Source: a virus
DNA: 64,000 nt
Direction: 5' to 3' (one strand)
IMG/VR virus record: IMGVR_UViG_3300027977_000008
Location: 107,944 to 171,943 of that record
The notes beneath the pieces were generated by a model. It was not told where the DNA came from. It made no database searches and worked only from the letters and a program-made list of their open reading frames with translations. Both the position numbers and the translations under genes were made by a program. Below are positions 6,122 to 30,696 of this stretch, one piece after another; position 1 is the stretch's first letter, and each line of letters starts with the position of its first letter.

Positions 6122-6571
6122 ATGACAAAACTACCAAATAACCCTTTAGTTTCTGAAGTTTTTAAAGCTGCACACGGCGGTAAAACTATAGAACGAAAGA
6201 TTGAAATCTTACAAGAACACAGAAGTAATCATATCAAATCACTTTTGATTTGGAACTTTGATAAAGGAATTGAAACTATTCTTCCACCTGGTGAAGTTCC
6301 TTATAGAAAGAATGAAGCACCTGCAGGAACACCAGGACATACAAGACTTGCCCATGAATGGAAGGTGCTTTATAACTTTATCAAAGGTGGCAATGACAAG
6401 ATCTCACATATGAAACGTGAGCAAATGTTTATTCAACTTCTTGAATCACTTCATGCTGATGAAGCAGAGATTGTTACTCTAGTAAAAGATAAGGAATTGC
6501 AGTCTAAGTATCGCATCACCAGGAGTGTTGTTGAGCAAGCATATCCAGAAATTGTTTGGCTAGATAAGTGA
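6122..6571 (+). CDS. Conserved T4-like phage hypothetical protein
   Basis: LPPGEVPY and REQMFIQLLESLH..EAE motifs. Confidence 0.8.
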   Translation: MTKLPNNPLVSEVFKAAHGGKTIERKIEILQEHRSNHIKSLLIWNFDKGIETILPPGEVPYRKNEAPAGTPGHTRLAHEWKVLYNFIKGGNDKISHMKREQMFIQLLESLHADEAEIVTLVKDKELQSKYRITRSVVEQAYPEIVWLDK

Positions 6572-7683
6572 TTGGAATTTTCATTGATATAACAGATCAT
6601 TGCAATTCTAAATGTCCTCTTTGCACTAGACACAAAGTTTCTAAATTTACAAATGTTGTAGATTTAGTTCCTACAACATTTGTAAATAGATCATCAGTGT
6701 CTATTGAAACTTGGAAAACTTGGTTTTCCCCAAAAGTTCTTGAGAATATTTCTTTTATAAACTTTCAAGGATCATTTGGGGAACCAAGTTTATGTGAAGA
6801 TTTACTAAAAATAATTAAGTATTCAAGATTTATCAATAAAAATATTAATATTTTGATGAGTACTAATGGAGGAACAAGGGATAAAAATTTTTGGAAGTCT
6901 CTTGGTAGACTTTTATTTTTTTCAACTCCCAACTCTAGAGTAATTTTTTCTATTGATGGGTTAGACGATACACTAGCAGAATATAGAGTTGGGGTTGATT
7001 ACAATAAAGTTATAGATAATGCCACTGCTTTCATTTCTGGTGGTGGTAATGCAGAATGGAGGATGCTTGTCTTTAAGCATAATGAACATCAGATTGAAAT
7101 CTGTAAACAAATATCCAAACAACTTGGATTTAAAAAGTTTTCCCACCAAACGGTGAATGGGTTTTGGGATACTTCTGGCATGGGAAGTGGATCTTATAGT
7201 TACGTGTATAATGGTAAATTAAAAACTTTACAAGAAGCTTCTGACCCTAAGTATACAACTAATCGAGGAAAGACAGAGAAAAATTCAGATATTCATTGTG
7301 ACTTCAATCACAAAATAAATTCTATAGGAAATCTCAGAATAGATAGCATGGGGATAGTTCATGCTTGCTGCTATCATCAATCTAGACTAAGGTATTTTTA
7401 TCCCGATTATTATATCAATAAAAATCCAGACGCAAAACCAGTTTATGATGAAAGTATTGATAATCCTAATATGGGATCTGGTGTAAAATATTTGCATAAA
7501 ATTTTTTACGATAGTATTATACCTTTGATAGAAGAGCAGGGTGGATTAAAAAGTATTAATTTAAATTACTTTTCTTTAGATGAAATTATTAACACTCCAT
7601 TTTTTCAGCATAGTTTAATTTCATCGTGGAAAAATCCTGTACATATGTGCAGAGAAAATTGTGGTATTTCTAGAATAAAATAA
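6568..7683 (+). CDS. Radical SAM protein
   Basis: CNSKCPLC (CxxxCxxC); GSFGEP; STNG; FSIDG; C-terminal Cys (CC, CRENC); GTG start overlaps upstream stop. Confidence 0.88.
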   Translation: MIGIFIDITDHCNSKCPLCTRHKVSKFTNVVDLVPTTFVNRSSVSIETWKTWFSPKVLENISFINFQGSFGEPSLCEDLLKIIKYSRFINKNINILMSTNGGTRDKNFWKSLGRLLFFSTPNSRVIFSIDGLDDTLAEYRVGVDYNKVIDNATAFISGGGNAEWRMLVFKHNEHQIEICKQISKQLGFKKFSHQTVNGFWDTSGMGSGSYSYVYNGKLKTLQEASDPKYTTNRGKTEKNSDIHCDFNHKINSIGNLRIDSMGIVHACCYHQSRLRYFYPDYYINKNPDAKPVYDESIDNPNMGSGVKYLHKIFYDSIIPLIEEQGGLKSINLNYFSLDEIINTPFFQHSLISSWKNPVHMCRENCGISRIK

Positions 7684-7734
7684 GTAACAAACTATACAAA
7701 ATTACTTGCATAGATAGTGTATAGACGCTATAAT
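7684..7734 (+). promoter_or_regulatory. NtcA-like box plus sigma70 promoter
   Basis: GTA-ACAAACTA-TAC (GTA-N8-TAC) at 7684-7697; TTGCAT-17 nt-TATAAT at 7706-7734. Confidence 0.65.
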
Positions 7735-7741
7735 GTGTCTA

Positions 7742-7977
7742 CGTTCATTCGCAAATAGCGAACGCAAGTAAGTCGCGGAACGGAGCGTTCATCTATGGAA
7801 GCAGTTCTTATTACTTGTTTGCAACTTGGACAATTAGTTGGCAGGGTTAATCAATCTTATGCTCCTGCCATAGTGAAGAGGTAAATTATAGAGGAACTCG
7901 TAAGAGTTTCGCCAAAGAAGTGCAGCATAAATGCAAACGGATGAAGGAACGGACCTAAAAATCCATTCATTCAGGAG
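7742..7977 (+). ncRNA. Tandem glutamine riboswitch (glnA / downstream-peptide type)
   Basis: Two CGTTCAT...GCAA...GGAACGG units (7742-7783 and 7786-7952); GGATGAA can pair with TTCATTC next to the AGGAG RBS; directly upstream of a YRGVKY peptide gene. Confidence 0.75.
7795..7944 (+). pseudogene. Small ORF inside the second aptamer, with a premature stop
   Basis: MEAVLITCLQLGQLVGRVNQSYAPAIVKR*IIEELVRVSPKKCSINANG*; internal TAA at 7882-7884. Confidence 0.5.
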
Positions 7978-7983
7978 AAACAA

Positions 7984-8115
7984 ATGACTACTGCAACGTA
8001 TAGAGGAGTAAAGTATGACGTTGAAGAGCGTAAATTAAATGTTCTTCAACTTCTTAAAGATCAAATTGAAAAAGCAGAGCGCCTTAAGCAAGCACAAATG
8101 CAACTAAAAGGATGA
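7984..8115 (+). CDS. DUF4278-type small peptide (43 aa)
   Basis: MTTATYRGVKYDVEERK...; YRGxxY motif; AGGAG RBS; below the size limit of the ORF track. Confidence 0.8.
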   Translation: MTTATYRGVKYDVEERKLNVLQLLKDQIEKAERLKQAQMQLKG

Positions 8116-8121
8116 TTGATT

Positions 8122-8157
8122 GGGAGAATTGACTTTCCCCTTTTTTATTGGTATAAT
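8122..8157 (+). promoter_or_regulatory. Overlapping terminator hairpin and sigma70 promoter for the thyX operon
   Basis: GGGAGAA...TTTCCC-T run overlapping TTGACT-17 nt-TATAAT (8129-8157). Confidence 0.7.
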
Positions 8158-8180: not shown

Positions 8181-8363
8181 ATGCGGTACAAGGAAACAAT
8201 CCGCCTAGTCAAAAAAGCACTAGAGCAACCTTGGAAATATTCTGATGCTGAACTCTTGTACATGAGAAAGGCTTTAGATGATGCTACCTTAGGATTAGCA
8301 ACAAAGAAATTTAACAAGAAAAAGAAAAAAGGATTTGGTTATCATGACAGTGCGATTGATTAG
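8181..8363 (+). CDS. Hypothetical protein
   Basis: GGAGG RBS; C-terminal KGFG motif common in cyanophage small proteins. Confidence 0.7.
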   Translation: MRYKETIRLVKKALEQPWKYSDAELLYMRKALDDATLGLATKKFNKKKKKGFGYHDSAID

Positions 8364-30535: not shown

Positions 30536-30610
30536 GGGACTGTTGCTTATTGGTTAAATCCGTCGCCTTATAAGCGGCAGAACTGAGTTCAATCCTCGGC
30601 GGTCCTACCA
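30536..30610 (+). tRNA. tRNA-Ile(UAU)
   Basis: Acceptor GGGACTG/CGGTCCT-A-CCA; anticodon arm GTCGC-CTTATAA-GCGGC; T arm CTGAG-TTCAATC-CTCGG; one D-stem mismatch. Confidence 0.85.
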
Positions 30611-30611
30611 T

Positions 30612-30696
30612 GGGAGCGTGGTGAAATTGGTAGACACAACAGACTTAAAATCTGTCGAACGTAGAGTTCATGTCGGTTCAAGTCCGACTGTTCATA
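30612..30696 (+). tRNA. tRNA-Leu(UAA), degenerate acceptor stem (possible pseudogene)
   Basis: Anticodon arm ACAGA-CTTAAAA-TCTGT; long variable arm; T arm GTCGG-TTCAAGT-CCGAC; acceptor GGGAGCG/TGTTCAT poorly paired; no CCA. Confidence 0.75.

Follow-up and report, generated by a model that had tools for sequence, protein, structure and literature searches.

The window analysed here is a stretch of 64,000 nucleotides of viral DNA (positions 107,944 to 171,943 of the IMG/VR record IMGVR_UViG_3300027977_000008). On its plus strand, a putative promoter is formed by the -10 box TATAAT (7729-7734), found by direct reading and kept in the related loci L032 and L083, and by a weak -35 box, TTGCAT (7706-7711), that matches the consensus at three of six positions only, which is why the promoter is missing from the list of a consensus scan. 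The leader that follows is made of two aptamer-like units. Unit 1 begins with the strand CGTTCA (7742-7747), the outer P1 strand, with which the above-threshold glnA RNA matches of the relatives L013 and L027 also start, and continues with hairpin 1 (TTCGC-AAATA-GCGAA, 7748-7762), which the first-pass annotation had read correctly and which has 7 nt deleted in the alignment with L032 and L083. There follow, by direct reading, the junction CGCAAGTA (7763-7770), the strand AGTCG (7771-7775), which is the 5' strand of a helix between the units, and the motif GGAACGG (7777-7783). The latter opens a palindrome, GGAACGG-AG-CGTTCA (7777-7791), in which the 3' strand of unit 1, the Shine-Dalgarno sequence (GGAG) of a nested gene and the 5' strand of unit 2 (CGTTCA, 7786-7791) are fused, unit 2 beginning two bases after unit 1.

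The 5' arm of hairpin 2, TCTATG (7792-7797), pairs with CATAGA in the relatives and includes the start codon (ATG, 7795-7797) of the nested gene. Here it is a pseudogene of 49 codons (7795-7944): the open reading frame list gives 29 codons up to an in-frame TAA at codon 30 (7882-7884) and then an onward frame to the TGA at 7942-7944. Read through the TAA, the frame ends in SPKKCSINANG, and its TGA falls within CATAAATGCAAACGGATGAAGGAACGG, the last base of which is 7952. The 3' arm, CATAAA (7926-7931), differs from the CATAGA of the relatives by G>A at 7930, the junction TGCAAA (7932-7937) differs from their CGCAAA by C>T at 7932, and the 3' strand of the inter-unit helix, CGGAT (from 7938), carries C>A at 7941. 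Within 7938-7952 also lies GAAGGAACGG, the 3' core of the outer aptamer, with GGAACGG at 7946-7952. The coordinates given by the first-pass annotation (ATG at 7795, TAA at 7882-7884, TGA at 7942-7944, GGAACGG at 7946-7952) were exact to the base; the nested insert that it had put at about 135 nt is present and measures 140 nt from CGTTCA to the 3' core.

Downstream, TTCATTCAGGAG (7966-7977) is the 3' strand of a helix formed with the stop codon region and runs into the Shine-Dalgarno sequence AGGAG (7973-7977) of a gene of 43 aa (MTTATYRGVKYD.., 7984-8115). This gene is putatively DUF4278/IF17-like: it scores 14.8 bits against Pfam PF14105, below the cut-off of 25.3, has the YRGVKY motif, and its homologue in P-TIM40 is annotated DUF4278. 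An intrinsic terminator-like hairpin (8122-8139) with a T run closes the module at 8148. Intact in the window are the promoter with unit 1, and the DUF4278 gene with its terminator. The surroundings offer some observations of their own. About 45 nt upstream of TATAAT, GTAacaaactaTAC (7684-7697) matches the NtcA-box pattern GTA-N8-TAC and is kept in L032 and L083. The terminator overlaps, at 8122-8157, a promoter close to consensus (TTGACT-17-TATAAT with TG, matching at 11 of 12 positions) for the next small gene (8181-8363). Just 5' of the module ends an ORF of 371 aa (6568-7683) with a radical-SAM-like CNSKCPLC motif; the colinear L032 is without about 1.1 kb there, so that this site is an apparent indel between close phages.

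About 200 unique related loci have an intact gene of 49-66 aa at the same position. Most loci were collected with sequence patterns derived from the element itself, so that its apparent conservation is inflated; the same architecture was found in metaG-MbCM1, S-SKS1, S-CAM1, Syn30 and S-RIM44, isolates chosen on protein similarity alone. The nearest relative of the window is L032, about 86% identical in the flanks and, by inspection of the alignment, about 96-97% in the module. Both L032 and L083 encode an intact protein of 49 aa, with CAA where the window has TAA, as expected by the first-pass annotation, which had considered the gene broken by a single change from CAA. Against L032, the module has four substitutions of consequence. 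C>T in the first base of the codon at 7882 produces the stop. G>A at 7930 breaks the closing stem, leaving C7793 opposite A7930 (the stem mismatch already noticed by the annotation, a G in the relatives). C>T at 7932 falls in the otherwise near-invariant CGCA, which is absent in three complete loci only (the window, L106 and L067). Finally, C>A at 7941 breaks pair 2 of the AGUCG/CGACU helix, the window being the sole locus with a non-pair (G.A) there. To these is added the 7-nt deletion that shortens hairpin 1, and the other differences from L032 within the ORF are synonymous. The window is also the sole locus with an internal stop and the sole one with a broken closing stem (one contiguous stem pair); among about 100 unique metagenome members of its own subfamily no internal stop was seen. 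The TAA and the substitutions at 7930, 7932 and 7941 indicate decay here, both of the nested gene and of its half of the switch, and the gene itself reads as a recent pseudogene created by CAA>TAA at 7882. Such a broken copy provides a natural knock-out for comparison.

The TAA and its neighbouring changes might instead be artefacts of sequencing or assembly, or a minority variant, the module of the actual phage being intact. The record is indeed a metagenome-assembled linear IMG/VR entry, estimated as 82% complete, and no second contig carrying the TAA allele was found (IMG/VR gave only the intact L032 and the metagenome collection nothing). We consider this unlikely, as random errors seldom cluster on functional positions and here four substitutions and a 7-nt deletion are concentrated in a module of 200 nt that otherwise resembles L032 far more than the flanks do. 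Suppression or recoding of the TAA was considered and rejected: the two window tRNAs appear, in the Rfam alignments, to have the anticodons UAA (Leu) and UAU, neither of which should read the stop. These tRNA genes are adjacent (30536-30696; 42.7 and 44.3 bits), one with a long variable arm.

At the gathering thresholds, those two tRNAs were all that Rfam detected in the window. Below threshold, Glutamine-II (RF01704, Downstream-peptide) matched 7739-7789 with 25.0 bits (E = 0.00048, gathering 33) and Glutamine (RF01739, glnA RNA) matched 7740-7786 with 23.2 bits (gathering 35), both covering unit 1 only. Two relatives without the ORF, L013 and L027, do pass RF01739 (43.6 and 39.6 bits), and only if both units of the element are taken together as a single aptamer. 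In this reading the first CGUUCA is followed by hairpin 1, ACGCAAGUA, a stem AGU.../...ACU enclosing 38 nt, and GAAGGAACGG, and the passing score pairs the first CGUUC with the last GGAACG. The strands CGUUCA, ACG(G/C)AAGUA and GAAGGAACG are common to RF01739, RF01704 and the phage module; in the window they are found at 7742-7747, 7762-7770 and 7943-7951, together with the hairpin and a third stem, AGUCG/CGGAU, with one mismatch (7941). Since covariance models cannot span an insert of 140 nt, phage switches split by a gene are mostly missed by them. On the contig of L013, a PhotoRC-II RNA (1021-1116, 57.1 bits) accompanies the glutamine element.

The reading of the whole element as one aptamer by RF01739, and a helix AGUCG/CGACU that bridges the units, point to an interlocked topology. 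The best-supported arrangement would be an outer canonical aptamer whose third stem has in its loop a second, inner aptamer-like unit in circular permutation; this inner unit runs from GGAACG through a GAG loop, CGUUCA and the ORF-bearing hairpin 2 to ACGCAAA. The two tandem aptamers described in the first-pass annotation are thus retained as two units and lost as a simple tandem, given that the Rfam glnA pairing and the AGUCG/CGACU helix link them. The side-by-side model was also rejected on folding, appearing in 1 of the 117 minimum-energy folds of spliced constructs compared with 71 for the nested form, such folds being weak evidence. The inner hairpin GAACG/CGUUC was present in most minimum-energy folds. 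We have also scanned IMG/VR with a pattern for the junction between the units, obtaining 120 contigs, and the junction GGAACGG-AG-CGTTCA was kept in all the loci of this set. The distance from CGTTCA to the 3' core was bimodal, corresponding to an ordinary hairpin (11-27 nt) at 18 loci and to 140-195 nt at about 103.

The first-pass annotation had proposed a test for covariation of the stem closing around the insert, and the stem does covary. In 200 unique loci its in-register pairing reaches 96.4% and falls to 30-50% if the 3' strand is shifted by 1-3 bases, and three of its pairs change in a compensatory way: C-G (104 loci) or U-A (91) at pair 3, A-U (88), C-G (80) or U-A (19) at pair 4, and A-U (85) or U-A (74) at pair 5. 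The AGUCG/CGACU helix exists in ten haplotypes, among them AAUCG/CGAUU, GGUCG/CGACU, AGUCG/CGGCU, GGACGG/CCGACC and forms of 8 bp, in which an insertion of 3 nt in the coding strand amounts to one extra codon. As far as the alignments tell, both the closing stem and this helix covary across the nested gene, with few independent compensatory changes, because the events cluster by ORF subfamily. RNAalifold, run on a codon alignment of 70 sequences, recovered CGUUC/GAACG and UCCCA/UGGGA, the two long-range helices. Another helix, CURAAG/CUUYAG, changes in step with the stop codon, which is UGA or UAA, reading CTGAAG/CTTCAG at some loci and CTAAAG/CTTTAG at others, and abuts the Shine-Dalgarno sequence (AGGAG) of the DUF4278 gene. 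Compared with synonymous-codon shuffles, the interior of the ORF folds with a median z of -2.59, modestly above the neighbouring DUF4278 gene (-1.81; baseline of other window genes, -0.65). This extra folding is suggestive only: this control lessens the case for a special selection of the interior for folding, as the DUF4278 gene is also unusually folded.

Gene and RNA are not only nested, they overlap. In S-TIM54, S-SSM4, P-TIM40, S-CAM22 and S-TIM5 the layout is constant, ...GGAACGGAG-CGTTCATCCC-ATG...TGG GAC GCA AAC GAC TRA-AGGAACGG, with the Shine-Dalgarno sequence GGAG of the nested gene between the two units, its start codon in the 5' arm of the hairpin and its C-terminus, WDAND, encoded by the same nucleotides that form the 3' core of the aptamer. 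At most loci it is the last four or five codons (DAND or DAKAD) plus the stop that coincide with the conserved core, and in a minority the ORF stops slightly earlier, in the 3' arm or just 5' of it. The terminal codons W-D-A-N-D are invariant at all three positions in the 70 unique members of the largest subfamily. Selection on the protein alone would leave synonymous variation, so that these codons appear to be selected as RNA too. Along the same lines, the penultimate residue of one subfamily, next to the terminal D, can be K, Q, E or R and the last two bases of its codon stay AG, pairing with TCCT. At L128 (S-CAM1) and L028 the ORF (..WYWSDHE) ends 5' of a separate, intact 3' arm and core, TGGGACGCAAACGACTGAAGGAACGG, and gene and RNA half are thus kept independently there.

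A different reading would have the halves on both sides of the ORF fold separately, unit 1 being an ordinary glutamine aptamer serving a small ORF and the sequence after the ORF simply the leader of the DUF4278 gene. This is how such metagenomic sequences stand in the glnA alignment of Weinberg et al. 2010, where unit 1 was aligned and the ORF and 3' half were left as flank, and the sub-threshold Rfam matches yielded by unit 1 alone would agree with it. Against it, the closing stem and the AGUCG/CGACU helix covary over 140-195 nt, the same two halves are joined by a short hairpin at the 18 loci of the ordinary type, two of which pass Rfam, and the 3' codons do not vary at synonymous positions, all of which makes separate folding improbable and favors a single RNA interrupted by a gene.

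That the nested ORF is a real, conserved protein-coding gene and not a chance frame is clear from several sides. A DNA search of phage genomes gave matches in two pieces with about the spacing of the window, and in S-TIM54, S-SSM4, P-TIM40, S-CAM22 and S-TIM5 the gap between the pieces is an annotated CDS of 50-60 aa. With the S-SSM4 protein as query, tblastn found it at full length in all 309 matching phage records. Over all collections, a single open frame crosses the whole insert, from the ATG in the arm to the 3' arm or core, at 190 of the 192 unique loci with a long insert (all but the window and L106), far beyond chance. The long inserts differ in length mostly by multiples of three. Within the largest subfamily (the 70 unique members used for codon statistics) dN/dS has a median of 0.39 and stays below 1 in 99% of the 476 unsaturated pairs, and the entropy of the three codon positions is 1.06, 0.55 and 1.47. 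Intact frames of about 49 codons and purifying selection had both been set as tests by the first-pass annotation. A chance ORF in a non-coding hairpin extension of variable length, which might be suggested by the strong folding of the insert (median z about -3.7 against shuffles) and by the frequency of variable hairpin loops in riboswitches, is barely credible in the face of the dN/dS value, the low entropy of second positions, the length changes in threes, two conserved cysteines, a confident structural model and membership in PHROG families 504, 13397 and 6471.

The nested proteins fall into several subfamilies, corresponding to phrog_504, phrog_13397 and others without PHROG, and have in common a hydrophobic N-terminus and the two cysteines. 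The proteins of S-SSM4, S-TIM5 and P-TIM40 match phrog_504 with E values from 1e-16 to 1e-25; that of L032 has no PHROG match, yet both of its cysteines align. AlphaFold2 models the protein as a helical hairpin (pLDDT 82.8), and we have accordingly described the product as a predicted helical hairpin with two conserved cysteines, of the phrog_504 superfamily. The window copy departs from this two-cysteine superfamily (phrog_504, phrog_13397, phrog_6471) in lacking the open frame, by its TAA at codon 30. Searches with the nested proteins gave no significant family in Pfam, unnamed clusters only in the ESM Atlas, and no match with E<1 by Foldseek against the PDB. The subfamily of the window (MEALILTCLQAQLI...DAKAD) is abundant in metagenomes (L137-L255) and is represented by one phage isolate record only, DSL-LC02.

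Hairpin 1 can hold a gene as well. In about a quarter of the loci (36 of 133) it contains an ORF of 61-75 aa belonging to phrog_6471 and annotated gp196 (199-399 in both L001 and L005, 106-306 in L128, and 33 IMG/VR loci), which is found also in 47 phage records, including S-TIM5, S-TIM54 and S-CAM1. The ORF starts with an ATG in the 5' arm and stops within the 3' arm, where its stop codon and the facing arm vary together (TCTTATG/CATAAGA, TCTCATG/CATGAGA, TCCTATG/CATAGGA). The HHalign comparison of the two ORF families (97.4% probability, E 1.3e-11) indicates that the genes of hairpin 1 are homologous to those of hairpin 2.

We believe that the segment 7742-8148 is, very probably, one copy of a widespread module of T4-like cyanophages, a switch with a nested gene that has decayed in this genome. 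The module would comprise a glutamine-riboswitch leader of two interlocked aptamer units, the DUF4278 (IF17-like) gene downstream and a terminator, the hairpin loop of the second unit carrying the gene of 49-66 aa. From the sequences we infer that the phage RNAs bind glutamine and that the nested ORF is translated, and the direction and logic of the control are deduced in the same manner. Closure of the RNA around the gene would require that the gene be free of ribosomes, and the folded, glutamine-bound form would bury the nested start site, since GGAG would be held in the inner hairpin and the ATG in the closing stem. A translating ribosome would cross the junction, the AGUCG/CGACU strand and the GAA of the E-loop, and stop a few bases 5' of GGAACGG. 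As it would be running through parts of the aptamer, the latter could not fold during translation of the ORF. Ribosomes and glutamine would then be competitors for a single RNA, and because this RNA is shared, the nested gene could not be translated while the switch controlling DUF4278 is folded, nor could the switch fold while the gene is translated. In addition, a ribosome terminating in the core would open the helix beside the Shine-Dalgarno sequence of DUF4278. The logic advanced by the first-pass annotation, with aptamer 1 gating the ORF and the ribosome gating aptamer 2, fits the anatomy described here. A more general proposal, which we hold tentatively and with somewhat more doubt than conviction, is that this is a hitherto unrecognised riboswitch architecture of cyanomyoviruses, in which a glutamine aptamer surrounds one or two translated genes, with start and stop codons placed in its helices and the last codons serving as ligand-binding core. 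The competing inputs of ribosome and glutamine would make a natural two-input switch, which would determine the relative amounts of two or three small proteins with an action on the nitrogen metabolism of the host. The interplay of translation and RNA folding is directly testable in these elements, since the same nucleotides appear to be selected as codons and as aptamer core.

Some known systems share part of this organization. In the Mg2+ leader of Salmonella mgtA, with its mgtL ORF, and in attenuation leader peptides, the position of the ribosome on a leader ORF decides the structure of the RNA. Those ORFs are short sensors of translation speed, whereas the phage ORF, situated within the aptamer, codes for a conserved protein that is predicted to be folded and is subject to purifying selection. 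Group I and II introns with ORFs in peripheral loops, and tmRNA with its reading frame, are structured RNAs around a protein-coding insert. They are ribozymes or tmRNA and do not sense a ligand, and their ORFs are not known to overlap the conserved core, unlike the phage ORF, which shares core nucleotides. Leaders with tandem aptamers resemble the phage leader in having two aptamer-like units; in contrast to such independent neighbours, the units of the latter are joined by a covarying helix, the best-scoring fold brings the first 5' strand together with the last 3' strand, and one or both units hold a gene. We have found no description of a gene nested in a glutamine aptamer by full-text literature searching.

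The closest relatives are the glutamine riboswitches of cyanobacteria, reported as translational ON switches in which ligand binding has been proposed to compete with a structure occluding the ribosome-binding site (PMC6212724, PMC6698751). The downstream gene of the phage module is of the same kind as theirs, encoding DUF4278/IF17-like YRGxxY peptides. Unlike in cyanobacteria, a hairpin loop of the phage RNA holds a gene of 49-66 aa with codons overlapping the conserved core, and the units are interlocked, sharing one helix. Riboswitch aptamers are usually taken as compact non-coding domains and phages as nearly free of them (PMC5473149). In the survey of McCown et al. 2017 (PMC5473149) only two cyanophage glutamine aptamers were listed and riboswitches were considered rare in phages, compared with the hundreds of cyanophage genomes found here to carry the predicted glutamine switch, mostly missed in covariance-model searches. 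Beside the IF17-like gene, two or three uncharacterised small phage proteins may be under glutamine control, and through them the virus might manipulate the nitrogen assimilation of its hosts, which are among the most abundant phototrophs of the ocean. Among 185,579 prokaryote genomes, the phage-type 3' core had five matches, with no sign of a cellular version; from their contig size, source and sequence type, all five look like phage contigs within MAGs or assemblies. Contigs L132-L136, which have the phage-type core of the aptamer, are catalogued in MAGs or assemblies of Nonlabens, Verrucomicrobiales, Euryarchaeota and Synechococcus, and these are likely mis-binned or contaminant cyanophage contigs.
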